This document shows positions 8,065-59,024 of a stretch of DNA of 64,000 bases, piece after piece. Below the pieces are notes generated by a model. It was given only the letters and a program-made list of their open reading frames with translations, did no database searches and was not told where the DNA came from. The translations under genes and the position numbers were made by a program. Numbering within the stretch: the first letter of the stretch is position 1; each line of letters begins with the position of its first letter. The stretch comes from a phage, in the NCBI GenBank assembly GCA_009015555.1, contig GCA_009015555.1_3613.1, one strand, 5' to 3'.

Positions 8065-8289
8065 AGACCCATCCAGACCGCAATGGCACAAGGGGCGAAT
8101 AGCAGGGCTACAATGGCCCATGACACATATGCGTACCATGCAGGCCACAAAAGATAATCGCAGTTCTCCCATTCAGTGTTAGGGTTGTTGATCATTTGCC
8201 CTCCTCTCAGTGACTACCGTGCCCCAGGCACAGTTCCCCGTACAGGAATACCGCGCCAGCAACGCAGGCCATGAACAAACAAAAGCCCA

Positions 8290-15435: not shown

Positions 15436-15838
15436 AGAGAGGCACCATTGGGGAAAGATCTGCGTACAGCATCTCGAACATCGCCACCTCTCCTTCGTCC
15501 ACGTTGTGCGTGTCTAAGAAGATTTCTTCAATAGACAGACGTTCGGTATCTCCTCGCCCAAAGGCATGATAAACCAAACGATCACCCTTCTCAGGGCAGG
15601 TTCTCCACTGAAGAAGGCCACTCATGCTCTTAGTCCACAACCGCAGGTCCCCGTTCTTCATCTCGTGACGCATGGTAAACTCCCGGACGGTATTCGGCCC
15701 GGTGGGGACTTCGATAGTCAAACCTCGGAACTTACCTTCCAACTTGGTCACTACTTGGCGTCGAACAGGATCATCCATAACGGCCTTCCAACTCCAATCC
15801 CGAGCCAGCCTCTCAATTACATCTTTGATTTCACTCAT
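15365..15838 (-). CDS. paralog family member (motif EVAMFEMLYADL)
   Basis: Track ORF. Confidence 0.55.
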   Translation of the reverse strand: MSEIKDVIERLARDWSWKAVMDDPVRRQVVTKLEGKFRGLTIEVPTGPNTVREFTMRHEMKNGDLRLWTKSMSGLLQWRTCPEKGDRLVYHAFGRGDTERLSIEEIFLDTHNVDEGEVAMFEMLYADLSPMVPLFAGALDEADKLLLEKFNGPKAKR

Positions 15839-16359
15839 TATTTATCCTTCGTTGGGAAAAATACAGACAGGGTATTGGAACCCGCCGCCTTATCGAGTTT
15901 TCGGGTGACGCCGAAGAACTCCCGATTCATATCTATGAGCATTTGCTCGTCGCCGTAAAGCATCTGGAACATATCCAACTCTTCAAATGTCGGACGCCAA
16001 GGGTCGTCAAACATCTCCGATAAATGAGTCTTTACACCGTCACACTCGTAAGTGCAGGAGTTTTCAGTGACTACCAATCTGGCCCGGAGACCTTTTATGC
16101 CAATGCCGGGGATCTCTATGCTCGCCAGATCTCCTGTCTCAGGGTCGATATTCGCCTTTACCATCTTGTCCATCTCCCAAGAAGAATCCATCTTGGTTTT
16201 GAGGTAGAACGAGGCCCGGCTGTCTATATCTATCCCTCTCTCCACCCGATGCTCAAGGAACTTGAAGAAAACTTGGTGTTTCAGCCAGTGGTTCCACCCG
16301 ATCCAGCGAGCACCCTGCCCAAATACCTCACGGGTAATTTCTTCTTGGCTTTTTCTCAT
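15838..16359 (-). CDS. paralog family member (motif ELDMFQMLYGDE)
   Basis: Track ORF. Confidence 0.55.
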   Translation of the reverse strand: MRKSQEEITREVFGQGARWIGWNHWLKHQVFFKFLEHRVERGIDIDSRASFYLKTKMDSSWEMDKMVKANIDPETGDLASIEIPGIGIKGLRARLVVTENSCTYECDGVKTHLSEMFDDPWRPTFEELDMFQMLYGDEQMLIDMNREFFGVTRKLDKAAGSNTLSVFFPTKDK

Positions 16360-16834
16360 AGTAGTCTAACTCCCACTCGTCAAATTCTTCTTTGGCCCTT
16401 TCGATTGCCCACTTTTCCGCCCACTGCTCCCTAAACGCTTTAAATTCATCCGGATAAGTCATCTGGAAGAATGCCATATCCTCCTTGGTGAGGGCATACT
16501 GGTTAAAGAAGAGAGCCTTTATGTCCTCTTCTGAATATAATGTAACCGAAATTCCCTTCCAGATCAACTTGGATTCGATAATTTCTTTCGGCGGTTCGTA
16601 TGATCCGCTGTGACCCATCGGTCCTCCCGGCGCACCTAAGTTTGCCCAACTCCCGTGCATCCACATATACAGAACACCCCCGATGATATAGGTGTCGCCG
16701 TGGTTTGCCGTCAAGGGTAGATTGGTCACTGATTGCAATGACCCTTGTATCACCATATTTTGTGTCGCAGCAGGGAAAAGGCCGGGAGACGTTGAATACG
16801 GGTTAGATACATTACCAGTGTTAAAATTTGCCAT
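16328..16834 (-). CDS. paralog family member (GAPGGPMGHSGS; EDMAFFQMTYPDEFKAFREQWAEKW)
   Basis: Track ORF. Confidence 0.55.
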   Translation of the reverse strand: MANFNTGNVSNPYSTSPGLFPAATQNMVIQGSLQSVTNLPLTANHGDTYIIGGVLYMWMHGSWANLGAPGGPMGHSGSYEPPKEIIESKLIWKGISVTLYSEEDIKALFFNQYALTKEDMAFFQMTYPDEFKAFREQWAEKWAIERAKEEFDEWELDYYEKKPRRNYP

Positions 16835-16881
16835 GCACCCTCCAAAAGAAAAGGCCGACCGTCTTTCGACGATCGACCCGA

Positions 16882-17325
16882 TTATCCAAAGAACAGCACG
16901 ATGACTGTCACAATGGCGTATACCGCCGCCCCGGCAATGAGAATCATTCCGAATGGCTTGCGTGTGAAGCGCTTTAGACGAGCGAACAGGGAGTTTCTTT
17001 TCTTATGCTCTACAACAAGATTCTTGCAGAGTGTCAGGAAAGAATTGATCTCTCCGGCATCGCCTGTCATAGCGAATGGAGTGTGCTTCAACTCTCCGGG
17101 GTTCGGGACTGCAATCGGCCCAGATGGTGTTTCCACAACCATGCCGCGCTGATTTACCCGGTAAGTAACCCCTCGGATCTTATCTTCAAGGACGTATGCC
17201 CTGAATCCCCAAAGATCGGCCTTGGCCCGGCGGATAGATCCGCACGAGTAATCCAAGCGATCCCCTCGGATCAGATCGAGGTTACCCTCTACCATCGGAA
17301 GTTGACGAACGTATGCGTAAAACAT
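16882..17325 (-). CDS. hypothetical protein with C-terminal transmembrane anchor
   Basis: Track ORF; RBS GGGAGGAAGG; C-terminal GMILIAGAAVYAIVTVIVLFFG. Confidence 0.55.
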   Translation of the reverse strand: MFYAYVRQLPMVEGNLDLIRGDRLDYSCGSIRRAKADLWGFRAYVLEDKIRGVTYRVNQRGMVVETPSGPIAVPNPGELKHTPFAMTGDAGEINSFLTLCKNLVVEHKKRNSLFARLKRFTRKPFGMILIAGAAVYAIVTVIVLFFG

Positions 17326-17530
17326 AGCCTTCCTCCCGTTGTAAGATTCCGCACAACCATTTTACCATGTTATGCAAAAATACAACAGAAGACTCTTGAC
17401 AAAGTTGCCATGTTGTCATTTTACACAACAAATTCTCCGCTTCACATTTAAATTGCTAAAATCTATTTTAATACATCGAAAATGCCTATCGTCGGGATCT
17501 GGTCAATAGGCATAACCTTGCAATGAATTT

Positions 17531-18124
17531 TTAGTCAAAAGTCGTTTCACATTTATGCTGGAAACGTTCCAGTGCGATCGAGGTCCTTGGCTCCGCCAAT
17601 CCGGTCCCGTAAACATACGATTTTCCGGTCATGGTTTTACGCACACCGTATGATCCGAGTTCCAGATCTTCGTACATGACGTCGAACCCGTCCTCTGTCT
17701 CGATCACCTCTGTAGGCAGTGCATAAAACTCCCTCAGAAACTTCTGCATCTTCCCGGCGATCCACAGTGCATCCGTCCGGGTGTAGAAGTTGCTGTCATC
17801 ACTCAGCTTCATGAGTTCCAGTTTCAGGAACACAGGTAAGTGAGTTTCGTCAAGGATCGGCTCGTCACGGTAGCAAGGGGTCAACGCCATCCAACGCCCT
17901 GGTTTAAGTTTGCCCTCTTTCTCCAACTGGAGAAAAGATTGCTCCGCCGAGGCAACAACAGTATCCGGATATTTACCGTACAGGCGGGAATCATGTACGC
18001 CCGCCGGGCAGGTGTGAGACATAACATCCGGGTCTACAAGGGCCGGGACCTTTTTGGTCTCAAACCAAAGCCCCCACCAGTTAATCGCGTCACGTACCAG
18101 TGCCAAGTTCATAGGATATTTCAT
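17531..18124 (-). CDS. hypothetical protein with class-II aminoacyl-tRNA-synthetase-like motifs (tentative)
   Basis: Track ORF; motif-2-like CYRDE..HLPVF and motif-3-like GTGLAEPR; function unverified. Confidence 0.5.
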   Translation of the reverse strand: MKYPMNLALVRDAINWWGLWFETKKVPALVDPDVMSHTCPAGVHDSRLYGKYPDTVVASAEQSFLQLEKEGKLKPGRWMALTPCYRDEPILDETHLPVFLKLELMKLSDDSNFYTRTDALWIAGKMQKFLREFYALPTEVIETEDGFDVMYEDLELGSYGVRKTMTGKSYVYGTGLAEPRTSIALERFQHKCETTFD

Positions 18125-18125
18125 A

Positions 18126-18386
18126 TTACCCCCTGTGCCCGTTTTCGAATACTCGGCGGGTAATGCCGGAGAACTTTTTCAGGTCTTCCATCTTGAACCC
18201 CGGGTAGTTTTCCTCCAAGAATCCTTGCATGGCCCCGTAAAGATCAGACATCTCGACAAGAATCATGACGTGACTGCCCTGACGGTGTGCATCGACCAGT
18301 TCCTCGACCTCCTCTTGAATCTTGCCGAGAGATCCGAAACGGCGCTTTTCTATTTTGTCCAGATGATAACCAGGTTTATCTTGCAC
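18126..18386 (-). CDS. MazG/HisE-like all-alpha NTP pyrophosphohydrolase (tentative)
   Basis: Track ORF; EEVEEL...EMSDLYGA pattern. Confidence 0.45.
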   Translation of the reverse strand: MQDKPGYHLDKIEKRRFGSLGKIQEEVEELVDAHRQGSHVMILVEMSDLYGAMQGFLEENYPGFKMEDLKKFSGITRRVFENGHRG

Positions 18387-18395
18387 TTTCTCCTC

Positions 18396-18896
18396 CTATG
18401 GGCAGCAGCGCGGCCCTCCACCACAATAATATTGCCAGCTTCTACCCCCGTGGTAGTTTACTGGCCCTGCTCTCTCACACCCTGACCCGCTGCACCCCTC
18501 TTCCATAATGTGGTAGTCGATGGAACATGAGTGTGGATGGTCCAGCATATCGAGGATCTCAAAACAAAGTCCTCTCAACCATATAAAGTGATTATGCTCG
18601 CATACCTCCAACAAGTCAATCTCTTGTTTTGTCGGTTTTGCCGGATTCTCAAAATACGGGTATGATTTCCATCCAGTAATGACATGGATAACCTTACCGT
18701 CCTTTACCTCATAATCCACGCTCTCAACCAGCCTGATCGAAACCTCTTGGATTACCTCTGTGCAACTTGATCCGTAATCAGGATTTGCCTTCCCTGTGCG
18801 AATGTTTTCCTCTATCCAAGAGATAACCGGGCTTTTGGCCCGGTGTGTATCGACAGACAGGAGATGCGCCATTCTCCCGTTAGTCATTGTGACCAT
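18396..18896 (-). CDS. Cys/His-rich hypothetical protein
   Basis: Track ORF; CEHNH, HPHSC, CSGSGC, CGGGPRCC clusters. Confidence 0.5.
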   Translation of the reverse strand: MVTMTNGRMAHLLSVDTHRAKSPVISWIEENIRTGKANPDYGSSCTEVIQEVSIRLVESVDYEVKDGKVIHVITGWKSYPYFENPAKPTKQEIDLLEVCEHNHFIWLRGLCFEILDMLDHPHSCSIDYHIMEEGCSGSGCERAGPVNYHGGRSWQYYCGGGPRCCP

Positions 18897-20008
18897 GCAG
18901 CATCCTGTACATTGAGGATCAGTTCTTCCGCCAATCGCTTGTTGCTGTTCTTCGGCAGCTTACTCTCGTGGTAGAGAACTTCACGGATCAGTTTGTCCTT
19001 GTCCGATGCCCACTCAACGATGTCCTCGTAACTGTGGGTTCCGTTACGAATGCCCAGCAGTTCCTCTGCGTCCGGGCGGCGAACGATGACCTGCCCCGTT
19101 TCAAGGATTTCCTGTCCCATACGGAGCAGGCGCACCAAGTGCATGGCGTGTTTGGTGTCGTAACCGAACTTCTCCTCCAGCTCATGCCGGGCGGCGTTAC
19201 GGTTCTTCACCCACTGCCAGTAGTTGTGGTGCTTATCCTTGGCAACCGTGTGATCCTGACGAAGATATTTAACGATGAACAACGGCGGCTGCTTTTTCAC
19301 AGACTCTGGGATCTCATCGTACTGCAATTTACGGATCGACCCGTCGGGGTTGAACATCGGCCCAACATCTTCACGGTGGTCCGGTACTACGCCATAGATG
19401 TCCGCCCCGAACGGCACCAACGTGCAGACACCCTGCATATTGTTCAGCTTACGCATGAAGTCTTCGTGCTTCAGCACCTTCACGTCGAGGTAGCTCTGTA
19501 CCAAACGGAAGAACTCAAGTTGGGTCGGCTTTTCTTCCGGCATCGGGTTGTTGATATGCTTGTTGTGACCCTTGATGCGTTTCAACTGCGCCATCGCATA
19601 ACCGCCGAAGCGGTAGGCCACGTTTTTGTTCAGCAGTTGCGGCAGGAAGGACTTCAAATAGTCCCACGCCGGATGCTTGTACAGAGTCGCCTGATCATCA
19701 GTGAAGCCCAGTTCAATGATATTTGGGTTCATGTCGCAGAACAACTCCATGAAGTTGTTCAGTTCGTAAACCTTTCCATCTTCCTCGTCCTCGATCCCCA
19801 TCTCACGGAGGGTTCGGAAAGGTGCCCGGATTACTCCCGGGCGGGCAACGATGATGCCACGAATATCAGTGTCGCTAGTCGGCGTCGCCGTCCCATACGC
19901 ATGAGATCCTGCGAGACATAGCATCAGCACCTTCGATACGTCTTTGTGACTTTCCAGCTTCTCGACGATGCTTTTTACCCTTCCATTTGTCACAATGGTA
20001 TTTTCCAT
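18884..20008 (-). CDS. nucleotidyltransferase-fold protein (Pol-beta superfamily signature GS..G...SDTD)
   Basis: Track ORF 18884..20041; start at in-frame ATG (MENTIV). Confidence 0.6.
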   Translation of the reverse strand: MENTIVTNGRVKSIVEKLESHKDVSKVLMLCLAGSHAYGTATPTSDTDIRGIIVARPGVIRAPFRTLREMGIEDEEDGKVYELNNFMELFCDMNPNIIELGFTDDQATLYKHPAWDYLKSFLPQLLNKNVAYRFGGYAMAQLKRIKGHNKHINNPMPEEKPTQLEFFRLVQSYLDVKVLKHEDFMRKLNNMQGVCTLVPFGADIYGVVPDHREDVGPMFNPDGSIRKLQYDEIPESVKKQPPLFIVKYLRQDHTVAKDKHHNYWQWVKNRNAARHELEEKFGYDTKHAMHLVRLLRMGQEILETGQVIVRRPDAEELLGIRNGTHSYEDIVEWASDKDKLIREVLYHESKLPKNSNKRLAEELILNVQDAAWSQ

Positions 20009-20095
20009 TAATCCTCCAGTCGTGCAAATCACAGAGACCAACCCATCCGGGCTTTTTCACCCGGATGAAACTGTCACAGTTAGTACAGTCTTTTG

Positions 20096-20497
20096 TTACA
20101 GACATTTTACCCCGTAGAAAATCAGAGCGATCACCATCCCGGTTGTGTAGATTGCACCGAAGACGTGCTGACCGTAAGTGTACGTTTTCGCCTTGCCTGC
20201 ATTGGCAATGCCCAAGATATAGCTAACGATGATCGATGCCCAGTGTACAATCATGATGCCGAGGCTCAGTGCGCCAGGGGACCAAATGTACAGCGAGTAC
20301 GAAAGGTACGCTGCAAAGATACCCATCAAAGTTTTGAAGAGAAGAGACCCGGCACCTAACGTTCGCTGTTCGAACTTCAACGCCTCCGGCTTAATGCTTT
20401 CCAAGAAGAGCATCAGACCCAAGCTGATTACATTCAGGCTCGCGCCCAAGCAGAAGATTACCATAAGAACGATGTACTGCCAAGTTGGTGCCAACAT
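20096..20497 (-). CDS. integral membrane protein (4 TM)
   Basis: Track ORF; hydrophobic. Confidence 0.5.
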   Translation of the reverse strand: MLAPTWQYIVLMVIFCLGASLNVISLGLMLFLESIKPEALKFEQRTLGAGSLLFKTLMGIFAAYLSYSLYIWSPGALSLGIMIVHWASIIVSYILGIANAGKAKTYTYGQHVFGAIYTTGMVIALIFYGVKCL

Positions 20498-20898
20498 TAT
20501 AATTTCTCCTCATAAATATCAGTGATGAGGTCAGAGACCTCGAAAGGTTCTAACTCTTCAACGTTAATCAACCGCTTCAGTCGCTCGATAACGAAGTCCT
20601 TCTTCACAAACACATCCGACAAGTGGGCAATGTCCTGCTTGCCACGCATCCCACTGACCAACTGCTTGTACCGGATGTGCTCATAATACTCTTCCCGGGT
20701 GATGTCTGTCAACATCTTTCCGTCTTCCAGTTTCAGAAAGACAGTCCCGTGGTCCCAGTCGAATCCACTGTGGGCAGAGTCTACACCGACACGGGGTGTT
20801 CCGCCAATGGTCACGAAACCTTTGTCGATCTGTACCGCCACTTTGTCTTCCGGGTTGCATTTCTGCAACTGCTCAATCAACTCTTTAACTTTTATCAT
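20497..20898 (-). CDS. hypothetical protein (133 aa)
   Basis: Track ORF. Confidence 0.55.
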   Translation of the reverse strand: MIKVKELIEQLQKCNPEDKVAVQIDKGFVTIGGTPRVGVDSAHSGFDWDHGTVFLKLEDGKMLTDITREEYYEHIRYKQLVSGMRGKQDIAHLSDVFVKKDFVIERLKRLINVEELEPFEVSDLITDIYEEKL

Positions 20899-21194
20899 TT
20901 GCCAACCTTACAGAAATGTGCCAAGGCCAGCCCAATCAGAGACAGAATTGCCGCCGCCAAGATGAAAGGTAAAAAGAACGGTAGTATTGTCAGGAGTACC
21001 GGGGTGATGAAGCCAAGAACGGCACCAACCAATGACCCCAGTACGGCCCCATTTTCACGATTGTAACTCGGTTCCCCGGCGAGGGCCAAGAGTACCACCC
21101 CTAACCACACCAGGACACCGATTATCGCCCATACCCACCCGATCATCACGACACTACCGATGGCGTTCGAGGCCGCAACCATTAAATCAAACAT
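20895..21194 (-). CDS. integral membrane protein (99 aa)
   Basis: Track ORF; hydrophobic. Confidence 0.5.
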   Translation of the reverse strand: MFDLMVAASNAIGSVVMIGWVWAIIGVLVWLGVVLLALAGEPSYNRENGAVLGSLVGAVLGFITPVLLTILPFFLPFILAAAILSLIGLALAHFCKVGK

Positions 21195-21195
21195 A

Positions 21196-21651
21196 TTAAC
21201 CCCTTTTAAGATGGAACTTTTTCAGTTCGACGATGAAATTACGTTCTGTTTCCGTAAAGTCTACCCAGCGGCAGAAATCGCCCTCCCCGAAGTAACCCGC
21301 CGGGGCCTCTCCGTCCTCGTCCAGCTTAACATCGTAAAAGTAATCTGGGAGAACGAAGGCAATAGCCGTCAGTGCCCCGTTCAGTGCATCCTCTTCCTCA
21401 TGGAAGTAAGCAAACGGAATGGAACTTGGGATCTTATCCGCAAATTCATACATCCGTTGCTGATACCCGCCGTCCAGCACGATAAAGGTTTTATCCTTCT
21501 TGAGCCACTGCTCGATCATTTTCACTTTCGGATTGTCTCGCGGTTCGTCCCAGTAGTCAGCCAGTAGTTCGCAGGCAGCATGTCCCGGCTGGATACCTGC
21601 CTGGATGCCCATGATATACTGGTTGACCAAGAAATACATACGAGTCTTCAC
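21196..21651 (-). CDS. PTH2-like peptidyl-tRNA hydrolase (tentative)
   Basis: Track ORF; IMGIQAGIQPGHAA resembles PTH2 GKIAAQCxHAA core. Confidence 0.45.
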   Translation of the reverse strand: MKTRMYFLVNQYIMGIQAGIQPGHAACELLADYWDEPRDNPKVKMIEQWLKKDKTFIVLDGGYQQRMYEFADKIPSSIPFAYFHEEEDALNGALTAIAFVLPDYFYDVKLDEDGEAPAGYFGEGDFCRWVDFTETERNFIVELKKFHLKRG

Positions 21652-21974
21652 TCTTTACCTCCGAAAATTTTACGGGCCAATTCCTCATCGCCGATCGTGT
21701 GGTTCCAAATCCACCGGATTATTTCAATTGCCCACGCGATAGCGTAACAGCCGATCAGGATAAACCATGCAATGGGCCAAACCACTGCGATCAAGACCCA
21801 CCCTAGCATTAGCATGGACCAATCCACGGTTTTACCCTTGTCCAAAGGGCAAAGATACCACCCATCGATGGCGTCCGGCATCTTTATCCCCCGGCCAGTC
21901 TGCCGCCACTTGATAATCCCGAACCACACTGCCGCACTAATACAGACGCCAAGTAGGTAAATTGGAATCGTCAT
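21648..21974 (-). CDS. membrane protein (108 aa)
   Basis: Track ORF; hydrophobic. Confidence 0.5.
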   Translation of the reverse strand: MTIPIYLLGVCISAAVWFGIIKWRQTGRGIKMPDAIDGWYLCPLDKGKTVDWSMLMLGWVLIAVVWPIAWFILIGCYAIAWAIEIIRWIWNHTIGDEELARKIFGGKE

Positions 21975-23253
21975 ACCCTTCCTCCTCTCTTAATTTTTTG
22001 ATTTCTGCCTTTACTCGTGATAGAGCGCGGGCAACGTATTTAACTTTCATCGCTCGGATCTCAGAAGAGATTAATTCACGACGACCTGCCAATCTCGCGG
22101 AGATCTCTTTACTCTTCTCGGAGATTTCCAGTCGATTCTTATGCAACTCGACAGCACAGGCCCATAGTACATGAGGCTGGTCGTAGATGTCAAACATTTT
22201 CTCCGGCCCACGACCCCGTGCGTCGCACATACAAGCCTCAATGAACTTCAGTGCGAACTGATTTTCCTGCGGTTTGTGCGCCTTGATGCGTTCAATCAGG
22301 TCGAATACCTTGCGAGGCTTCAGATCCATGATCCGGTGCAGTCGTGTGTGGTCGGCGCAAACGCGATGGGCGAGGTCTGCCCATTTGTTTGGTACGCCGA
22401 ATCGCTCGCTCAGTTGTGCAACCAACCCAAGACCGAAGTATTCGTGCCCGTGCAGGTTCCCGTACTCAAAATACTGGACCTTCCCCAAGTCGTGACACAG
22501 GACTGCCCATTTCACCTCCGGTGATGACATGATGCGCTGGGCATAGTCCAAACACAGCAGCGTGTGAACGTATGCGTCACCCTCGGGGTGGTGGGCTTTC
22601 GGCTGCAATGCACCTCGCAGGTTTGCCACCTCCGGCATTTCCCCAAGATTGCAGAGCATGTCGATCATCAACGAGGGTCGGTTGTCATTACTCTGGTCCT
22701 CGAAGCATTTGCGGATCTCAGCCATCTTGCGCTCTTTCGGGAGCGCAGCCAGTGTCGCTTTTGCACTCTCGCAAACGAACATCGTTGAGTGGTCCACCAC
22801 GAACTTGCCGCCAAAGCGGGCCAAGAATCGAGCCAGGCGGTAGATACGGAGCGGGTCTTCACGCATAGCTGCCGCTGATACGTTCCTCAGAACACCTTTT
22901 TGGATGTCACGGATGCCGCCATATGGGTCGATGTATTCCCCGGTCTCCAGATCCTTTGCGATCGCATTAATGGTCAAGTCCCGGCGGGCCAAGTCCTCTT
23001 CGATGGTCACATCTGGGCTGAACATCACCTCGAAATCGTGGTATCCTGCGCCAGTTGAACGCTCGGTACGGGCCAGGGCGTACTCTTCCTTGGTCTCAGG
23101 ATGCAGGTAAACTGGGAATGCGGCACCAACTTGCTCGAAGCCGAGTGCCATCATCTCTTCGTGGGTGGAGCCGACCACAACGTAGTCACGGTCTTTGCTC
23201 TCAACACCCATCAGTTCATCGCGGACCGCGCCGCCTACCAGATAGATTTTCAT
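21937..23253 (-). CDS. cca: tRNA nucleotidyltransferase (CCA-adding enzyme) with HD domain
   Basis: MKIYLVGGAVRD..DRDYVVVG head motif, RDLTINA, HD-domain HHPEGDAYVHTL. Confidence 0.9.
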   Translation of the reverse strand: MKIYLVGGAVRDELMGVESKDRDYVVVGSTHEEMMALGFEQVGAAFPVYLHPETKEEYALARTERSTGAGYHDFEVMFSPDVTIEEDLARRDLTINAIAKDLETGEYIDPYGGIRDIQKGVLRNVSAAAMREDPLRIYRLARFLARFGGKFVVDHSTMFVCESAKATLAALPKERKMAEIRKCFEDQSNDNRPSLMIDMLCNLGEMPEVANLRGALQPKAHHPEGDAYVHTLLCLDYAQRIMSSPEVKWAVLCHDLGKVQYFEYGNLHGHEYFGLGLVAQLSERFGVPNKWADLAHRVCADHTRLHRIMDLKPRKVFDLIERIKAHKPQENQFALKFIEACMCDARGRGPEKMFDIYDQPHVLWACAVELHKNRLEISEKSKEISARLAGRRELISSEIRAMKVKYVARALSRVKAEIKKLREEEGYDDSNLPTWRLY

Positions 23254-23471
23254 TTTTTGATGTTCCCTTCCCAGTTGTGCAGATAATCATCGAAGGTCTC
23301 TTTGCAATCGGCAGAGACCACTACTTCCGTATCATCACCCCAGTTGGTGACTCCAGACTCAACAACCTTGAGGTGCTTGGCACCCCAGGATGGGTTGTAC
23401 ACATCATCGAAAAACTTACCCGGCACCGTGCCGCCTTCAAACAGATAGGTTCTTTCTACGTATCCGCTCAT
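23250..23471 (-). CDS. hypothetical protein (73 aa)
   Basis: Track ORF; ATGA overlap. Confidence 0.5.
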   Translation of the reverse strand: MSGYVERTYLFEGGTVPGKFFDDVYNPSWGAKHLKVVESGVTNWGDDTEVVVSADCKETFDDYLHNWEGNIKK

Positions 23472-23800
23472 ACTCTTTCTCCTCGTAAGTTGACAGACCA
23501 GCGGTCAATATCCTTTTCCCAATCCATCGTTCGTTTGGGCATCTCTTTCTCACCACGCAGGTATCTTATGATATTCAGCGGGTGCTTGTCAACAAAAGAA
23601 ATGTCGCTGAACGGGTCATACTCACCACGAAGCATGTTTTCGAATCGAGTGAACTCATTGCCGGACTTTGCCTCAATGGTCATTACGTCAAAATCGTCGT
23701 GTGGACGAGCAGGATCATGAGGGTACACGACCATTTCATACCCTGACAGAGTTTTGGCTTTCTTTGTAAACACCGGGCGGTAAAAAATGTCGTATTTCAT
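23468..23800 (-). CDS. hypothetical protein (start at ATG with RBS GAGGAG)
   Basis: Track ORF 23468..23866. Confidence 0.5.
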   Translation of the reverse strand: MKYDIFYRPVFTKKAKTLSGYEMVVYPHDPARPHDDFDVMTIEAKSGNEFTRFENMLRGEYDPFSDISFVDKHPLNIIRYLRGEKEMPKRTMDWEKDIDRWSVNLRGERV

Positions 23801-23847
23801 GATTATCTCCTCTTCAATGATGGTCATTATACACATGTCTGGTCGCA

Positions 23848-23882
23848 ATGCAATAAAAAAGGCCACCCGAAGGTGACCTTTT
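23848..23882 (-). terminator. rho-independent terminator
   Basis: Minus strand hairpin GGTCACC-TTCG-GGTGGCC followed by TTTTTT. Confidence 0.5.
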
Positions 23883-23884
23883 TG

Positions 23885-24397
23885 TTATTTGGGAGAGACC
23901 CAGTAGAAAGGCTTCTCCAGATTCAGCTTTTTCAGTGGGTCCCAGATGAAATATGCGTACCCGGCACCGTCTGTTTTACCATCCTCGGTGAAGGATGGTC
24001 GCTTCGACAACGTGATCAGGTGGTCAAGGGGGTACTGTTTCCAGAACTCCTCTCGACGCATACTCTCCAAGAACCCCAGGCGCAGCAGCATGATTACGAC
24101 ATCTGCATCTTTATGGGCCTTCTCCACAAACTCTTGGGCCAAGGAGTAGGGCGGATTGGTGATAATGCAATCCACACGATCGTAAGAAGTATTAAGGTAA
24201 TCAACACCGTCCCTGATCTCTCCCCACGCTGACCCGATCGGCAGTTCGTTGTAAAAGCGCCCGGAGGCGCGACAAGGTTCCATGTAAGTCCAGCCCTTGC
24301 GGATTGGAATCAGGTCGAACAGACATTTTACTGCCCACTCAGGAGTTTCGTATACATCGAATGCCTTACGTTCGCCCTTCGGCTTCAGTGCCGCCAT
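23885..24397 (-). CDS. small DNA N6-adenine methyltransferase-like protein (NPPY motif)
   Basis: Track ORF; motif IV IITNPPY, motif-I-like EPCRASGRF. Confidence 0.55.
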   Translation of the reverse strand: MAALKPKGERKAFDVYETPEWAVKCLFDLIPIRKGWTYMEPCRASGRFYNELPIGSAWGEIRDGVDYLNTSYDRVDCIITNPPYSLAQEFVEKAHKDADVVIMLLRLGFLESMRREEFWKQYPLDHLITLSKRPSFTEDGKTDGAGYAYFIWDPLKKLNLEKPFYWVSPK

Positions 24398-25320
24398 TAA
24401 TCTTCCTCTCCAACATAGAACTGACTTCCCGCCAGGATTTCTTCAATCAAGCACTCCAGTGCCTGCTGACGAGTATTCTGCGAGGGATCGAGATCAAGGC
24501 CAAAGGCAATGCCGATCTCCTCGATCTCGTCCATGTTGTACTCATCGAAATCCTTCGGGCACAGGGTACTCAGACGAAACACCTTTTTGTAGCCGTCATC
24601 CAAGGTGATGTCGAACTCATCTCCCTGTGGGAAGTCTTCCGCCGACAGAACTTTAGTCTCCGGGAACGGAAGGGAAATTACCTCTCCGATCGGCAATAAA
24701 ATACCTTCGTCCTGTGAAGCAGGTTCCGGCAGTTTACCCGAGCCAAATCGGGAAAGAATCTGCTCACGACGTTCACTGTTCTGCAAACGCTCACGCATCT
24801 CTTCCGCCGTCAGGTATATTTCCCCGGCACGTTCGAACAACTCAGCCAGTTCAAGAGGCGTCAGGACCTCAGCCATCATCCCGTAGAACTTCTCTTTGAA
24901 GAGACGTTCATAAAATTTGCTGCGGGCGATCACGTGGGCACTATCACCTCCAGATCCCAACTGAACGTTGTGGAACATGAAATAGCAGCCGTCTTCACAA
25001 ATACGCTCATCCCCGGACAGGAAGATCGTGGTTGCTGCACTGGCACACTCACCAATGGCCCGGGTAATGATCTTCGCCTTGCTGTCACGGAAAGCAGCGA
25101 GGTACATGTCGGCAATGTCTACTCGCCCGCCCGGTGATGTGATCAGGATTTCAATAACATCATCTTCCTCTGCGGTCCGAATCATGTCCAAACCCTCGAA
25201 GTGGTTTCGTGGATCATTGTCCAGTTCGGTCACATAGAGACGCCAGTCACGGCGCTCTTGAGGGGTACACCAAAGGTTACCACGGTAAGTTTGATCAACG
25301 GTATCGAATTGCTCTTCCAT
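24397..25320 (-). CDS. ClpP-family serine peptidase-like protein with C-terminal extension
   Basis: ITSPGGRVDIADMY...ECASAATTIFLSGD...FMFHNVQLGSGG matches ClpP Ser/His region. Confidence 0.6.
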   Translation of the reverse strand: MEEQFDTVDQTYRGNLWCTPQERRDWRLYVTELDNDPRNHFEGLDMIRTAEEDDVIEILITSPGGRVDIADMYLAAFRDSKAKIITRAIGECASAATTIFLSGDERICEDGCYFMFHNVQLGSGGDSAHVIARSKFYERLFKEKFYGMMAEVLTPLELAELFERAGEIYLTAEEMRERLQNSERREQILSRFGSGKLPEPASQDEGILLPIGEVISLPFPETKVLSAEDFPQGDEFDITLDDGYKKVFRLSTLCPKDFDEYNMDEIEEIGIAFGLDLDPSQNTRQQALECLIEEILAGSQFYVGEED

Positions 25321-25796
25321 CAGGCCCCCTTGCTCAGTTCAGTACGGACACGAATGTGGTTTTGCAGAATCCACTCAATAACCTGAGACCGATCCGAATC
25401 CACAATTACTTCATGATGGCGCTTGAACATGTCGAGGATCTTTTGAGCCTCGACCGCATACCGCGCTGCCCGGTCGATAAACAGCAGACGCTCTTTTGCA
25501 TCACCTGTCACCGGACACAGTTCACTTGGCACCTCGATATCTGCCAAATGGTCAACCAGTTCTTGACGCTTTGAGAACATGAGGTGGACCTCTTGCTCAA
25601 CTGGCATCGACAGGTCGAATAATTTGGCCCAAAAGCCGGGCTTAACCCGTAGCTTACGGACGTTGATGATTTCCTCTTTCATGTCCAAGAAAAGGAGTTC
25701 CGCCAGATCTTCCAGGCGAGCGGCATCGACAGCACCACAGTTTTTAAGTTCCATCAGTTTGCGATGTTCAACTGTGGCAAAAATACCCTTATCCAT
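25320..25796 (-). CDS. hypothetical protein (start at ATG with RBS GGGAGAG)
   Basis: Track ORF 25320..25946. Confidence 0.5.
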   Translation of the reverse strand: MDKGIFATVEHRKLMELKNCGAVDAARLEDLAELLFLDMKEEIINVRKLRVKPGFWAKLFDLSMPVEQEVHLMFSKRQELVDHLADIEVPSELCPVTGDAKERLLFIDRAARYAVEAQKILDMFKRHHEVIVDSDRSQVIEWILQNHIRVRTELSKGA

Positions 25797-55477: not shown

Positions 55478-55553
55478 GCTGGATTAGCTCAGTAGGTAGA
55501 GCGCCTCACTTGTAATGAGGATGTCGCGGGTTCGATTCCTGCATCCAGCACCA
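55478..55553 (+). tRNA. tRNA-Thr (anticodon TGT)
   Basis: Cloverleaf by hand: acceptor GCTGGAT/ATCCAGC, loop CTTGTAA, T-loop GGTTCGATTCC, encoded CCA. Confidence 0.8.
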
Positions 55554-55559
55554 GATCAT

Positions 55560-55636
55560 GCAACGTTGCCGGAGTCTGGTAACGGCTCTCGCTGCAAACG
55601 AGATGAGCACTGGTTCGAATCCAGTACGTTGCTCCA
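55560..55636 (+). tRNA. tRNA-Cys (anticodon GCA)
   Basis: Acceptor GCAACGT/ACGTTGC, loop CTGCAAA, T-loop GGTTCGAATCC, CCA. Confidence 0.8.
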
Positions 55637-55637
55637 A

Positions 55638-55714
55638 GCGCCTTTGGTCCAATTGGTAGAGGCACTACATTCAAAATGTAGGGGTTCCCAGTTCGAATCT
55701 GGGAAGGCGCACCA
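55638..55714 (+). tRNA. tRNA with Leu anticodon CAA but short (5-nt) variable arm; identity uncertain
   Basis: Acceptor GCGCCTT/AAGGCGC, anticodon stem CTACA/TGTAG, loop TTCAAAA, T-arm CCCAG-TTCGAAT-CTGGG, A73, CCA. Confidence 0.55.
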
Positions 55715-55730
55715 AAATTTATGTAACCTA

Positions 55731-55759
55731 TTGACATAGTGTAATTATACTGCTAATAT
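55731..55759 (+). promoter_or_regulatory. sigma70-like promoter (TTGACA-17-TAATAT)
   Basis: Consensus -35, good -10, upstream of ORF 55786. Confidence 0.5.
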
Positions 55760-55785
55760 GGATACACTAATTCAATGGGGGCATT

Positions 55786-56160
55786 ATGAGCAAGGCTGCG
55801 ATTGTAACTCGTAAGCGTGGTCGCCCAAGCAAAGAAGAGAGCACAGCAATCGCCCTTGAAAAGGCAATGCTTGATCTCCGAGGCGAATTGGCCCGTCTGA
55901 CGCCGAAGGCCATTCATACTCTCGAAAACCTGCTCACAACAGGCACAGAGAAAGTGAAGGAAACCACGGCGAAGTATATCCTTGAGCAGGCGAAAGAGGT
56001 TAACAACCTCTATACTGAAGAGGATAACGAAGACGACGCAGCAGGCGGCACAACATCTGCCTCTTCTGAAACTCACGCTGGTTCTTCTGACGAGATGAAA
56101 AATGCCATCCCGTTGACAACCCAGATTCGTGAGTATAAAGCAGTAGGCGAAGATGATTAA
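55786..56160 (+). CDS. small basic/acidic protein with AT-hook-like RKRGRPSK motif
   Basis: Track ORF; own promoter and terminator inside tRNA cluster. Confidence 0.55.
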   Translation: MSKAAIVTRKRGRPSKEESTAIALEKAMLDLRGELARLTPKAIHTLENLLTTGTEKVKETTAKYILEQAKEVNNLYTEEDNEDDAAGGTTSASSETHAGSSDEMKNAIPLTTQIREYKAVGEDD

Positions 56161-56163
56161 CTG

Positions 56164-56190
56164 GAAGGCTCCCGAAGGAGCCTTTATTAG
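56164..56190 (+). terminator. rho-independent terminator
   Basis: AGGCTCC-CGAA-GGAGCCT then TTTATT. Confidence 0.5.
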
Positions 56191-56325
56191 AAGTTCTCTT
56201 TTGACGGGCACTTGTTAACGACCCGCAGAATGACGACGGTGTACAACGGCGTTTGATGGCGAGGAAGGTCTATAGGGATCAGCGCAGATCCTTGGATGTC
56301 AGGTGAGCCGTACAAAAGAGAATTT

Positions 56326-56413
56326 GGGGAGTTATTTCCGTAGAGGTAGCGGTGCAGACTGTAAATCTGTTGTCATTGCGACTCGGGTGGTTCGACTCCA
56401 TCACTCCCCACCA
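56326..56413 (+). tRNA. tRNA-Tyr (anticodon GTA), long variable arm
   Basis: Loop CTGTAAA, variable arm GTCATTGCGACTC, T-loop GGTTCGACTCC, CCA. Confidence 0.8.
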
Positions 56414-56419
56414 AATTAT

Positions 56420-56514
56420 AGTAGGATGGCTGAGTGGCTTAAAGCAGCATCTTGGAAAGGTGTCGGATCAGGTAACCCCTGGTCCCGGGAGTTCAAATCT
56501 CCCTCCTACTGCCA
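56420..56514 (+). tRNA. tRNA-Ser (anticodon GGA), type II
   Basis: Acceptor AGTAGGA/TCCTACT, D-loop GAGTGGCTTAA, loop TTGGAAA, long variable arm, CCA. Confidence 0.75.
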
Positions 56515-56518
56515 GACC

Positions 56519-56595
56519 GGATCGTTAGCTCAATTGGTTAGAGCAAGGGACTTTTAATCCCGAGGTTCGGGGTTCGAGTCCCTGACGGTCCACCA
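56519..56595 (+). tRNA. tRNA-Lys (anticodon TTT)
   Basis: Acceptor GGATCGT/ACGGTCC, loop CTTTTAA, T-loop GGTTCGAGTCC, CCA. Confidence 0.8.
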
Positions 56596-56760
56596 GAAAG
56601 GAAGAGGGTCCAAGCTGGTAATGCGAGAGGCGAGTCCTCAGACCAAAGCCCAGATGGAGGCCACCCTAAAGTCGTCCAACCGAAGGTCCCTGATTGAGTA
56701 ATACTTCCCCGCTTGTCGGGTACAGTTCTCAGTCACACCGGAAGGGGCGCACCCTATAAT

Positions 56761-56836
56761 TGACGGTGAGCATATAAGGACATGCGGGGGCCTGTTAAGT
56801 CCAGGATAGCTGGTTCGAATCCAGTACCGTCAGCCA
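56761..56836 (+). tRNA. tRNA-Asn (anticodon GTT)
   Basis: Acceptor TGACGGT/ACCGTCA, loop CTGTTAA, T-loop GGTTCGAATCC, CCA. Confidence 0.75.
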
Positions 56837-56945
56837 ATTTGGTTCCGACAAGGTGACGGCGCACCCCGGAGCGACGCTGAAAGATGCAGGCCGACGAACA
56901 CATACGTGTACTTAATCAATAGTCATTGCGATGGCTATTCGTTAA

Positions 56946-57023
56946 GTCCTGGTAGACAAACTGGATAAAGTCACCACCCTTTCAAGGTGGGGTTTGAGGG
57001 TTCGATCCCCTCTCAGGACGCCA
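56946..57023 (+). tRNA. tRNA-Glu (anticodon TTC)
   Basis: Anticodon stem CCACC/GGTGG, loop CTTTCAA, T-loop GGTTCGATCCC, CCA. Confidence 0.75.
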
Positions 57024-57117
57024 ATCTTTTAGGTCGGTAGATTAATGAGCAAAGGCCGCTCGCTGGATTCCAACCCCAGTTCAAGGCGTTCGATTCGTCA
57101 CCTTCCTGCCAAATTCA

Positions 57118-57193
57118 GGTCCTATGGTATTAGCGGTAAACATACTCGCCTGTCACGCGAGAGTCACGGGTTCGAATCCCGTTAGGACCGCCA
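57118..57193 (+). tRNA. tRNA-Asp (anticodon GTC)
   Basis: Acceptor GGTCCTA/TAGGACC, loop CTGTCAC, T-loop GGTTCGAATCC, CCA. Confidence 0.8.
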
Positions 57194-57200
57194 CTTCAAA

Positions 57201-57275
57201 TGGGGATTAGCTCAGGGGTAGAGCGCACAACTGATAATTGTGAGGTCGGTGGTTCGAAACCACCATCCCCAACCA
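57201..57275 (+). tRNA. tRNA-Ile (anticodon GAT)
   Basis: Acceptor TGGGGAT/ATCCCCA, loop CTGATAA, T-loop GGTTCGAAACC, CCA. Confidence 0.8.
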
Positions 57276-57345
57276 AACAGCCCCTCCCGGGATTGGACCG
57301 GGTTAACGGCAATCGCACACTGAGGCGTCTTCCGGGGGAACAATA

Positions 57346-57422
<77 letters not shown>

Positions 57423-57428
57423 AATTAT

Positions 57429-57503
57429 TGCGAGGTAGTTCAGCGGTAGAACAGGGGTTTCATACGCCTCATGTCGGCAGTTCGATTCTGCCCTTCGCAA
57501 CCA
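57429..57503 (+). tRNA. tRNA-Met (anticodon CAT; initiator/elongator/Ile-lysidine not resolved)
   Basis: Acceptor TGCGAGG/CTTCGCA, loop TTCATAC, T-loop AGTTCGATTCT, CCA. Confidence 0.7.
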
Positions 57504-57509
57504 AATCAT

Positions 57510-57587
57510 GCTCCAGTAGCCCAATTGGTAGAGGCACTTGATTTAGGATCATGTCAGCGATGAGTTCGAATCTCTCCTGGAGTACCA
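57510..57587 (+). tRNA. tRNA-like gene with Leu anticodon TAG, short variable arm and weak T-stem; identity uncertain
   Basis: Acceptor GCTCCAG/CTGGAGT, D-arm CCAATTGGTAGAGG shared with 55638 tRNA, loop TTTAGGA, A73, CCA. Confidence 0.45.
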
Positions 57588-57593
57588 CATAAA

Positions 57594-57667
57594 GCGGGCA
57601 TGGTATAGTGGTTGTGCCTTAGCCTTCCAAGCTAATGAGTCCGGTTCGATCCCGGATGTCCGCTCCA
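57594..57667 (+). tRNA. tRNA-Gly (anticodon TCC)
   Basis: Acceptor GCGGGCA/TGTCCGC, stem TTAGC/GCTAA, loop CTTCCAA, T-loop GGTTCGATCCC, CCA. Confidence 0.8.
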
Positions 57668-57740
57668 ATTCACGGTGAGTCACTGCCGTTAAGTGTGAAG
57701 TTAAAAATGCCCGTGGTGATCGGGTTATCTCACCCAGTGT

Positions 57741-57816
57741 AGGGGATTAGTTTAATTGGTAAAACATCGGGTTTTGATCCCGACATCGCGAGGTTCGAAT
57801 CCTCCATCCCCCGCCA
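57741..57816 (+). tRNA. tRNA-Gln (anticodon TTG)
   Basis: Stem TCGGG/CCCGA, loop TTTTGAT, T-loop GGTTCGAATCC, CCA; 1-72 is A-C mismatch. Confidence 0.7.
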
Positions 57817-57898
57817 CATTAATGCTCATTAGCTCTTGTCAGTGGAACTCGAACCCTTAGAGCAGGCGACACAGACGTGTGTTTTAGTGAGCATCAAT

Positions 57899-57974
57899 GT
57901 GGCCTTAATTCAGCAGGTAGAATCCCCGGTTGTGAACCGGGCAGTCGTGGGTTCAAGTCCCACAGGTCACCCCA
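57899..57974 (+). tRNA. tRNA-His (anticodon GTG)
   Basis: Acceptor GTGGCCT/AGGTCAC, stem CCCGG/CCGGG, loop TTGTGAA, C73, CCA. Confidence 0.8.
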
Positions 57975-57978
57975 ATCT

Positions 57979-58071
57979 GGAAGATAGGGCGTAGTGGTAC
58001 GCACCCGGATTTGAACCCCGGCCCGCTGTGGCGACCCCACGGTGATAGTTCGACTCTATTATCTTCCGCCA
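57979..58071 (+). tRNA. tRNA-Ser (anticodon TGA), type II
   Basis: Collinear with bacterial tRNA-Ser(UGA): acceptor GGAAGAT, loop TTTGAAC, long variable arm, ...TTCC-G-CCA end. Confidence 0.7.
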
Positions 58072-58092
58072 CCCCTGATCATAAGGCAAACT

Positions 58093-58785
58093 ATGTTAGA
58101 AATGTTAACAGTGGGTAAATACACCCCTAGTCCTATAATTTCTAGCCCTATGGATGCTTATTTTGAGGGCGAGAGGAATAATAAATACGGCACTGTTGAG
58201 TGGGTTGTTCCTCAAGGCGTCACCTCAATCTGCTGTGTAGTGATAGGCGCAGGATCTTCTGGCAGAAGCGGCGGTCTTTCTTGGAGAAACAACATTCCAG
58301 TTACACCTGGTGAAAAACTTAAAATGCAGGTTAACTCCACAGCCAGCGCCCTCTTGAGAGAGACAACTATCCTTTGTGCTGCCCAGTGTGGCGGCAACGG
58401 AGGAAAAACATATAACTCTGTGAACGACGGTGGAGGCAATGCTGGACAATCACCACATGGTAGAGGTGGTGCTGGCGGCTACACCGGGAATGGTGGTGAT
58501 GGGCATACGTTCACAGGTGGTCCAGGACCAGGGTCCCCAGGTTCAGGTGGCGGCGGCGGCGGAGGCGCAGTTGTGTATCTGAACGGATCATTGACACCAA
58601 CTGTCTGCGGCGGAGTCGGCATGTATGGACAGGGGTCGAATGGTGGCGCTGATAACAGCGCCGGATATCCAGGCTCCGGCGGTTCTGGAACAAGATACGG
58701 AAGAGCAGTCGATGGTTATGGTGTTGTCAGGGTTGTGTGGGGAAATTATTCATTCCCAACAAATGCCCCGAGACCGAAATCCTGA
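58093..58785 (+). CDS. glycine-rich repeat protein (GGxGG tracts, poly-Gly run) embedded in tRNA cluster
   Basis: Track ORF 58042..58785; start at ATG after AAGG just downstream of tRNA-Ser. Confidence 0.5.
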   Translation: MLEMLTVGKYTPSPIISSPMDAYFEGERNNKYGTVEWVVPQGVTSICCVVIGAGSSGRSGGLSWRNNIPVTPGEKLKMQVNSTASALLRETTILCAAQCGGNGGKTYNSVNDGGGNAGQSPHGRGGAGGYTGNGGDGHTFTGGPGPGSPGSGGGGGGGAVVYLNGSLTPTVCGGVGMYGQGSNGGADNSAGYPGSGGSGTRYGRAVDGYGVVRVVWGNYSFPTNAPRPKS

Positions 58786-58856
58786 TAGGGATGGTCCCTA
58801 CGAGGATCGTCTTTTGCTCAGTGGTACTCAGCATTTACTTAGTATTCAAACAATAT

Positions 58857-58943
58857 AGAAGAGTGGCGAAATAGGTAGCCGCACCGGACTGCTAATCCGG
58901 GGTCCTTCGGGGCCTGAGAGTTCAAGTCTCTCCTCTTCTGCCA
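58857..58943 (+). tRNA. tRNA-Ser (anticodon GCT), type II
   Basis: Acceptor AGAAGAG/CTCTTCT, stem CCGGA/TCCGG, loop CTGCTAA, long variable arm, CCA. Confidence 0.75.
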
Positions 58944-58948
58944 AGCAT

Positions 58949-59024
58949 GGAACTGTAGCTCAGTTGGTAGAGCGGTTGCCTGAAGAGCAGCGCGTCAGCG
59001 GTTCAAATCCGTTCAGTTCCACCA
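58949..59024 (+). tRNA. tRNA-Phe (anticodon GAA)
   Basis: Acceptor GGAACTG/CAGTTCC, D-arm TAGCTCAGTTGGTAGAGC, loop CTGAAGA, T-loop GGTTCAAATCC, CCA. Confidence 0.8.

Follow-up and report, generated by a model that had tools for sequence, protein, structure and literature searches.

Five genes with apparent roles in tRNA maintenance lie together on the minus strand of a phage contig (GCA_009015555.1_3613.1, GenBank assembly GCA_009015555.1), at positions 17531–23253 of the 64,000-nt stretch analysed here (the window), and the question is whether they form one system that keeps tRNAs functional during infection, as was proposed from the letters alone (the sequence-only reading). The phage is a CR3-like Certrevirus (subfamily Vequintavirinae) of enterobacteria: over this region, identity is 97.4% to Cronobacter phage CR3 and 82–96% to further members of the genus. 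All five open reading frames are present at the coordinates first proposed (Table 1), each protein has a strong match to a PHROG phage family (E = 1e-44 to 1e-147), and hidden Markov model (HMM), profile and structure searches supported the proposed families, the weaker ones included. We found that the five genes are not one system. They are two adjacent, separately inherited modules: module A, comprising a CCA-adding enzyme, a PTH2-fold protein and an RlaP-family nucleotidyltransferase, and module B, comprising a minimal class II aminoacyl-tRNA synthetase core (the mini-synthetase) and a MazG-like partner. With a little more confidence than doubt, we read both as supporting translation, module A as a repair kit for tRNA 3' ends and module B as a two-subunit enzyme.

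The division became apparent from 80 IMG/VR phage loci encoding a relative of the 197-aa mini-synthetase (30–98% identity; 50 lineages at 60% identity). In 78 of these loci a MazG-like gene lay no more than 1.4 kb away in the same orientation, and in 69 it was the immediate neighbour, either upstream (n = 45) or downstream (n = 24). The two exceptional loci had no MazG-like homologue even with the family HMM, and in phage PcCB7V two additional genes separate the pair. At one locus (L087) both proteins are encoded in a single reading frame, and 11 of the best 150 representatives at 50% identity are fused chains with the synthetase core N-terminal and the MazG-like part C-terminal. Adjacency in either order, combined with repeated fusion, argues strongly for joint action of the two proteins. 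The same 80 loci contained the CCA enzyme in 6 cases, the PTH2-like gene in 7 and RlaP in 9–10, mostly in close relatives; outside Vequintavirinae the pair travels without these three genes, and the idea of a single co-inherited system does not hold.

At the level of fold, the mini-synthetase is firmly identified as a bare class II catalytic core, closest to seryl-tRNA synthetase (SerRS). A profile built from 43 homologues (34–76% identity) matched SerRS catalytic domains in the PDB at E = 2e-6, with TPCYRDE...FLKLE falling on SerRS motif 2, and both the antiparallel-sheet fold and signature motifs 1–3 of class II enzymes were recovered, in agreement with the class II-like motifs first noticed in the sequence. 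Conservation of these motifs, the two ATP-binding arginines among them, is complete or nearly complete: R86, F99, K101, E103, G157, S158, T174, A177, P179 and R180 are invariant across the 43 sequences, P27 is nearly invariant, and E88, G173 and G175 are conserved in at least 90%. Motif 2 (TPCYRDE...F.K.E) and motif 3 (GTGLAEPR, matched to the consensus by inspection) stand out as invariant in the family. Because the motifs are intact, the core should still bind ATP and activate a carboxylate. Nearly all of the 197 residues belong to this core, which leaves no room for a tRNA-binding domain; neither a SerRS coiled coil nor a histidyl-tRNA synthetase (HisRS) anticodon-binding domain is present, and no Pfam or NCBIfam synthetase model reached its cut-off. 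We rejected the label 'histidyl tRNA synthetase' given by PHROG and RefSeq, as SerRS ranks above HisRS and HisZ both by profile (where HisRS gave no match) and by fold; no HisG is annotated in CR3. The protein is no histidyl or seryl synthetase in the usual sense.

The mini-synthetase differs from SerRS in having no coiled-coil arm or anticodon-binding domain and a shorter motif-2 loop, and from the known truncated class II paralogues (HisZ, Bll0957-type amino acid:carrier-protein ligases, AsnA and EpmA/GenX) in its size of ~180–200 aa, about two-thirds of the smallest of them. Unlike any of these, it nearly always has a MazG-like partner, either as a separate protein or within the same chain. 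HMMER searches of 1.84 billion cluster representatives returned 1177 clusters at E ≤ 1e-30 and 1661 at E ≤ 1e-3, and by these matches the family is phage-only and sharply separated from cellular enzymes. It occurs in 275 of 50,697 GenBank phage records, including phi92-like coliphages and Acinetobacter T4-like phages. Some members carry C-terminal extensions. Residues 138–166 (29 aa) of the uncharacterised 166-aa protein encoded immediately upstream of the MazG-like gene match the extension of two mini-synthetases (P0063 and P0068; 50% identity, E = 2e-5), and three other homologues (P0071, P0108 and P0338) have different CxxC-type tails. The Cys-rich tail may be an appended nucleic-acid-binding or zinc-binding module, and the 166-aa protein is a possible third component of module B; besides its fusion to a few mini-synthetases, its Cys-rich motif was found near module B only in the Vequintavirinae-like members of the 80 loci.

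For the 86-aa partner, proposed earlier as a MazG/HisE-like nucleoside triphosphate pyrophosphatase, the sequence evidence gives this assignment moderate support. Its own match to PRA-PH (PF01503) falls just short of the cut-off (E = 1.2e-3; 19.6 versus 21.3 bits), 16 of 41 relatives match the same model at E ≤ 0.01 (best, 2.7e-5), and the family profile retrieved HisE and the MazG-like protein SSO3215 from the PDB at E = 0.3–0.4 each. In the 41-sequence alignment Y7, H8, K22, E25, E26, E29, E45, D48 and T76 are invariant; by inspection, E25, E26, E29, E45 and D48 make up the EExxE...ExxD metal-binding signature of MazG and HisE. Like members of those families (PF01503 and PF03819), the protein is ~85 aa long and has this acidic signature. 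It differs from them in its invariant N-terminal G-Y-H and C-terminal T..AF..G.R motifs and in its company, which never includes histidine-biosynthesis genes and has the synthetase core as its fixed partner. Because an ordinary MazG-like gene, homologous to CR3 gp245, lies at 45543–45905 (-), the 86-aa protein is not the sole superfamily member of this phage.

What might such a pair do? Module B is envisaged as a two-subunit enzyme, condensed into one chain in some phages, in which the mini-synthetase probably forms an aminoacyl-adenylate and the partner would contribute metal-dependent phosphoanhydride chemistry, as expected because of its invariant acidic residues. It most likely also works at the tRNA acceptor end or elsewhere in translation; the acceptor end is our best guess, based on genomic context, and one option is the re-charging of tRNA without anticodon recognition. 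That module B is a new phage-specific enzyme combining a minimal class II core and a metal-dependent pyrophosphohydrolase, with a role in tRNA biology or translation, is a tentative proposal that we hold at somewhat below even confidence. More specifically, and improbably, module B might remove the 3'-pyrophosphate added by CapRel/FaRel2-type toxins, leaving the remaining phosphate to the HD domain of the CCA enzyme.

The context in question is provided by neighbouring genes. In one lineage (L064) the gene order is Rnl1, DNA ligase, Rnl2, one small gene, the PTH2-like gene (here with an N-terminal extension), three small genes, mini-synthetase, MazG-like and IF3, with a tRNA array ~6 kb beyond IF3. 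The IF3 gene (9174–9704 in L064, and also in L089 and L092; IF3_N, 1e-17; IF3_C, 4e-28) immediately follows the pair. Thg1 is the next neighbour of module B in a 375-kb phage (L003), RlaP lies ~250–550 nt from it in two jumbo-phage loci (L065 and L047), and at L035 the pair sits within a tRNA array. Overall, RlaP, CCA enzyme, PTH2-like, Thg1, Rnl1, Rnl2 or IF3 genes occurred within 10 kb in 26 loci, and tRNAs in 22 loci; the former represent 12 of 50 lineages, a frequency near a rough chance estimate for genomes with a few genes of this kind, made without a matched random-window control. Five of these 12 lineages have an RNA-repair or translation gene within 1.5 kb of module B, and only such short distances are suggestive.

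A serious rival is that module B acts independently of tRNA. The activated amino acid or other carboxylate might instead be passed to a small molecule, nucleotide or protein, for which AsnA, EpmA/PoxA, HisZ-type paralogues and amino-acid:carrier-protein ligases are precedents; in a variant, the enzyme would make a dinucleoside polyphosphate. The MazG-like subunit would then hydrolyse a nucleotide substrate or product. The purpose would then be nucleotide or metabolite chemistry, or interference with host signalling. We consider this unlikely, as the recognisable neighbours are often tRNA or translation genes at close range (IF3 at ~270–520 nt, RlaP as above, tRNAs at ~250–900 nt and Thg1 at 1.2–2.4 kb), some homologues carry Cys-rich or zinc-ribbon-like C-terminal extensions of a type that is a common nucleic-acid-binding add-on, and the nearest relatives by both sequence and fold are true SerRS enzymes.

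We found no description of the MazG-like/mini-synthetase pair in the literature, with many subscription-journal papers outside the search, and module B is apparently an undescribed and widespread two-protein enzyme. We regard it as mattering more than module A. The family comprises ~1,200–1,600 sequence clusters labelled 'histidyl' or 'seryl tRNA synthetase' in databases and, if the proposal is right, no natural class II synthetase core would be smaller. Identifying its reaction would show the capabilities of a minimal core of this class as found in nature, which bears on ideas of ancestral synthetases, and could reveal a new phage means of protecting or rewiring translation.

Turning to module A, the CCA-adding/repair enzyme with its HD domain was the one assignment that the sequence-only reading held to be firm. 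It remains firm, with matches to the PolyA_pol head (PF01743; 3e-20, 73.3 bits), the HD domain (PF01966; 2.9e-7, 31.2 bits) and phrog_2244 (2e-147), and GGAVRD, DRD, RRD, EDPLR and HD motifs readable in the translation; RlaP is also firm as a family and the mini-synthetase as a fold. The head, the HD domain and a full-length match place the CCA protein with class II enzymes of the Escherichia coli Cca type: NCBIfam NF008137, 'multifunctional CCA addition/repair protein', aligned over model positions 1–396 of 409 at 1.3e-110. Since it scores 370, short of the 451 required of an equivalog, it is best described as a member of that family rather than as a certified equivalog. It resembles E. coli Cca in domain content, and in both cases tRNA genes of host or phage encode CCA, in keeping with a repair role; it differs in being phage-encoded and ~30 residues longer at the C terminus and in a gene that overlaps a small membrane-protein gene. 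PADLOC recognised no defence system; its one match was a generic hit to the HD domain of this enzyme.

The nucleotidyltransferase had been recognised as a member of the Pol-beta superfamily and can be refined to RlaP, an RNA-repair family. The Pfam score is well above the gathering threshold (PF10127; 1.2e-17, 64.9 bits, cut-off 23), the match to phrog_388 reached 5.7e-86, and the G-S-x10-D-x-D motif of the superfamily is readable in the translation ('AGSHAYGTATPTSDTD' / 'GSHAYGTATPTSDTD'). RlaP takes its name from a genomic association with RNA ligases. That association is absent here: Rnl1, Rnl2, Thg1 and IF3 were not found in the window or the CR3 genome, where the sole ligase is an ATP-dependent DNA ligase; no RNA ligase or polynucleotide kinase is annotated in CR3, and neither is RtcB, for which no specific query was run. 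According to a 2025 preprint, a Pseudomonas RlaP adds 1–2 nucleotides to RNA 3'-OH ends, favours a mimic of cleaved tRNA and is required to restore aminoacylation of over-damaged tRNA (PMC12776372). By analogy, the phage protein may likewise add 1–2 nucleoside monophosphates.

For the 151-aa protein, a candidate PTH2-like peptidyl-tRNA hydrolase, the fold is confirmed and the hydrolase activity is uncertain. The protein adopts the Pth2 fold and matches many viral proteins named peptidyl-tRNA hydrolase. Its Pfam PTH2 score (PF01981; E = 0.02, 15.6 bits) falls below the cut-off of 23, a search of the PDB with the family profile retrieved no Pth2 or other relative, and single-sequence PDB searches with the synthetase-like, PTH2-like and RlaP proteins gave nothing useful. 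Alignment by hhalign to five solved Pth2 sequences was weak (probability 11–26%) and consistent in register, pairing the family-invariant Gln21, His24 and Trp49 with the Pth2-invariant Gln22, His25 and Trp49. When this weak register was extended by hand, Gln17 fell on Lys18 and Glu85 on Asp86 (Sulfolobus solfataricus numbering), both of which are invariant in the five solved proteins and which we take to be the reported catalytic residues. Judged by this alignment, the catalytic Lys and Asp appear to be replaced by Gln and Glu. The earlier candidate is upheld as to its fold, and the sub-threshold Pfam score and apparent loss of the Lys/Asp pair leave its proposed activity uncertain. From archaeal and eukaryotic Pth2 (PF01981; 1wn2 and 1xty) the phage protein further differs in being ~30 residues longer. 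At one locus (L008) a canonical PF01981 PTH2 gene (5713–6159 / 8001–8456 pair) lies 2 kb from a gene of the PTH2-like family and is separated from it by a metallophosphoesterase gene, which suggests that the two are non-redundant.

Three separate lineages have a gene for a ClpP-like protease near the PTH2-like gene. In the window it occupies 24397–25320 (-), 1.1 kb upstream of the CCA gene; at L107 (4252–7972) ClpX and ClpP are directly upstream of the PTH2-like gene, and at L103 (3420–4550) a ClpP-like gene is ~3.5 kb upstream. This proximity may reflect the clearing of products of stalled translation.

The three genes of module A recur together beyond close relatives. A pattern-based search gave 13 PTH2-like loci, mostly from one lineage, and further lineages were sampled by hand. 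The order CCA enzyme, PTH2-like, RlaP is conserved at L009, where the PTH2-like protein is 44% identical, and in Seunavirus-like loci (L097–L104). In the unrelated and unclassified Vibrio phage 11895-B1 (126 kb) the three genes are contiguous (RlaP, 28.4 bits; cut-off 23), and in Rheinheimera phage Barba8S (82 kb, Barbavirus) the CCA and PTH2-like genes overlap. According to its annotation, the CCA gene of 11895-B1 (L094, 1804–3985) is split in two, with a gene for an HNH endonuclease between the joined parts; this tRNA-repair gene may harbour an intron or an intein-like element. The association is recurrent, not universal.

These families have been discussed together before. RlaP, CCA enzyme, Thg1 and PTH2 were proposed as phage counter-measures to tRNA-targeting immunity by Iyer et al. 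2021 (PMC7824862), who cite Burroughs and Aravind 2016 for phage and bacterial RNA-repair systems with such families. As first proposed, the cluster is a fresh example of this known phage RNA-repair theme in a known genus, sharing with it PF10127 RlaP, a class II CCA enzyme and a PTH2 fold in a large phage with many tRNAs, as well as the proposed logic of restoring RNA ends and recycling tRNAs after nuclease attack. It differs in that this genome showed no partner of the RNA ligase, kinase or phosphoesterase type, and in that its PTH2-like protein forms a sequence family of its own, in which the putative catalytic pair is altered. From the company of RlaP, a CCA enzyme and a PTH2-like gene in place of an RNA ligase, we infer that it acts on the 3' acceptor end and not on a severed anticodon loop. 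Two features go beyond the known theme, the ligase-free CCA/PTH2-like/RlaP arrangement and, more than that, the mini-synthetase/MazG-like enzyme of module B.

In the proposed mechanism, module A would be a kit for repairing the acceptor end. RlaP would replace nucleotides missing from a trimmed 3' end, the CCA enzyme would rebuild CCA while its HD domain clears 3' or 2',3'-cyclic phosphates, and the PTH2-fold protein would free the 3' end of a peptidyl, N-blocked aminoacyl or similar acyl group and make the tRNA reusable. The kit would act on tRNAs of host and phage that are damaged in the course of infection, with tRNA-acting host toxins as the most plausible cause. Toxins of this kind include toxSAS/CapRel enzymes, which pyrophosphorylate the CCA end (PMC9712102 and PMC11559606), MenT/AbiE-type toxins, which extend it by nucleotides (PMC10435456), and TacT, which acetylates charged tRNA and is reversed by Pth (PMC9241777). 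An anti-defence role for the cluster is plausible and matches the published proposals (PMC7824862); the activities of all the proteins in this phage, including the tRNA substrates of the PTH2-like protein and module B, are predicted from family and context. Module A would add a concrete, recurring, ligase-free arrangement to the picture of phage RNA repair, pointing to the site hit by several recently described immune toxins, and the phages concerned grow on E. coli-like hosts, which makes the idea directly testable.

Several observations weigh against this two-module reading. With a PTH2-like protein below the Pfam threshold and with apparent Gln and Glu at invariant positions, hydrolase activity is not assured; RlaP is here without the ligase partner that defines its usual context; and three phages (GAP32, a KVP40-like Vibrio phage and Xanthomonas phage X1) have a PTH2-like gene with neither a CCA nor an RlaP gene beside it. 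The cluster itself is interrupted by membrane-protein genes and uncharacterised genes, and scans of 16500–25500 for promoters (10 versus 8.6 expected) and terminators (11 versus 8.3) stayed at the chance level, giving no operon boundaries. The near-chance overall frequency of RNA-related neighbours around module B belongs here as well. Finally, the host owns a CCA enzyme and Pth, and the need for phage copies is unexplained.

Some of these points would follow if the cluster were a mosaic of independent accessory genes in the early/middle region of large myoviruses, which collect small add-ons there, with no concerted system and every protein working by itself: the CCA enzyme would serve general tRNA turnover, RlaP any RNA end, the MazG-like protein the nucleotide pool and the remaining proteins other tasks. 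The scattering of the five genes outside Vequintavirinae, the interspersed genes, the two genes that part module B in PcCB7V and the three lineages in which the PTH2-like gene is not beside CCA or RlaP all fit this explanation. So does CR3 gp194 (606 nt, 106418–107023, 'virion structural protein'), which lies between the genes for the 166-aa protein and RlaP and has left no trace in the window (~18884–18896), and whose presence or absence is an indel inside the cluster. We nevertheless judge a mosaic improbable, and slightly more so than a module B unrelated to tRNA. The three genes of module A are contiguous in an unrelated Vibrio phage and partly so in Barbavirus, the linkage of the MazG-like gene and mini-synthetase (78 of 80 loci, both orders, fusions) rules out hitch-hiking, and the L064 lineage brings together the PTH2-like gene, module B, two RNA ligases, IF3 and tRNAs.

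The sequence-only reading had connected the cluster with 19 tRNA genes of the phage. This count is correct: ARAGORN identified 18 tRNA genes in the window, and a tRNA-Tyr(GTA) at 56326–56410 (+), missed by ARAGORN and by the Rfam gathering threshold, is 100% identical to the tRNA-Tyr annotated in CR3. Reading the 3' ends directly showed that CCA is genome-encoded in 19 of 19 genes, and for this reason the CCA enzyme should be a repair enzyme that is unneeded for completing phage tRNA transcripts. The related Certrevirus CB7 has a single tRNA gene (PMC7344957), and its genome matches ~81% of the five-gene region and encodes a mini-synthetase, a nucleotidyltransferase and a CCA enzyme. Because CB7 keeps these genes with one tRNA gene, host tRNAs are probably at least part of the clientele. 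The tRNA theme of the cluster is strengthened by the identity of RlaP, the recurrence of module A and the encoded CCA; its tie to the phage's own tRNAs is loose, as CB7 indicates. CCA enzymes are needed where tRNA genes lack CCA, and the large tRNA array of this phage might suggest that the cluster, through its CCA enzyme, serves to mature the phage's own 19 tRNAs, a role we rejected as highly improbable and largely refuted by the encoded CCA, with CB7 and the position of the array, 32 kb from the cluster on the opposite strand, against it as well.

Table 1 Features of the gene cluster and the tRNA array in the window
Feature	Coordinates	Strand	Module or annotation
CCA-adding/repair enzyme, class II, C-terminal HD phosphohydrolase domain, 438 aa	21937..23253	(-)	Module A
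Predicted membrane protein, 108 aa, between CCA enzyme and PTH2-like genes	21648..21974	(-)	Open reading frame without family match
PTH2-fold protein, 151 aa	21196..21651	(-)	Module A; phrog_3668 'hydrolase'
Predicted membrane protein, 99 aa	20895..21194	(-)	Open reading frame; kept only in close relatives (5/80 loci)
Uncharacterised protein, 133 aa	20497..20898	(-)	phrog_12566; L009 homologue between PTH2-like and RlaP
Predicted membrane protein, 133 aa	20096..20497	(-)	Open reading frame; membrane-protein annotation in CR3
RlaP-family Pol-beta nucleotidyltransferase, 374 aa	18884..20008	(-)	Module A; PF10127, phrog_388
Uncharacterised protein, 166 aa, C-terminal Cys-rich motif CSGSGC...CGGGPRCCP	18396..18896	(-)	phrog_12113
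MazG/HisE-like protein (all-alpha NTP pyrophosphohydrolase-like), 86 aa	18126..18386	(-)	Module B; PF01503 1.2e-3
Minimal class II aminoacyl-tRNA synthetase catalytic core, SerRS-like, without tRNA-binding domain, 197 aa	17531..18124	(-)	Module B
19 phage tRNA genes, each with encoded CCA	55478..59024	(+)	ARAGORN (n = 18) plus tRNA-Tyr 56326–56410

The cluster is part of a long co-directional string of minus-strand genes in which adjacent stops and starts touch or overlap. Homologues of the 108-aa membrane protein occupy the equivalent position in three other loci (L009, L095 and L096). In CR3, RefSeq labels the five products tRNA nucleotidyltransferase, hydrolase, nucleotidyltransferase, hypothetical protein and 'histidyl tRNA synthetase', and one Pectobacterium relative carries the labels peptidyl-tRNA hydrolase, phosphoribosyl-ATP pyrophosphatase and 'seryl-tRNA synthetase'; although these database names exist, we found no functional study of the cluster proteins.

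Directly past the stop codon of the mini-synthetase, within the 205-nt gap before the next gene, an 8-bp inverted repeat at 17482–17513 (-) (ATGCCTAT...ATAGGCAT) is followed by TTTTCG. The consensus scan did not flag this repeat, which is a candidate for a weak terminator where the gene string finishes at its 3' side. Immediately downstream of the cluster, at 14989–16834 (-), are four tandem paralogue-like genes of common C-terminal motif (for example MFEMLYADL, MFQMLYGDE and FFQMTYPDEF), two of which contain short collagen-like Gly-X-Y runs. Elsewhere in the window, genes resembling ribose-phosphate pyrophosphokinase (51270–52160) and nicotinamide phosphoribosyltransferase (52212–54002), both on the plus strand, are 99% and 94% identical to CR3 gp256 and gp257; this pairing appears to resemble NARP1 (Adps and Namat), a phage pathway of NAD+ reconstitution described in 2024.

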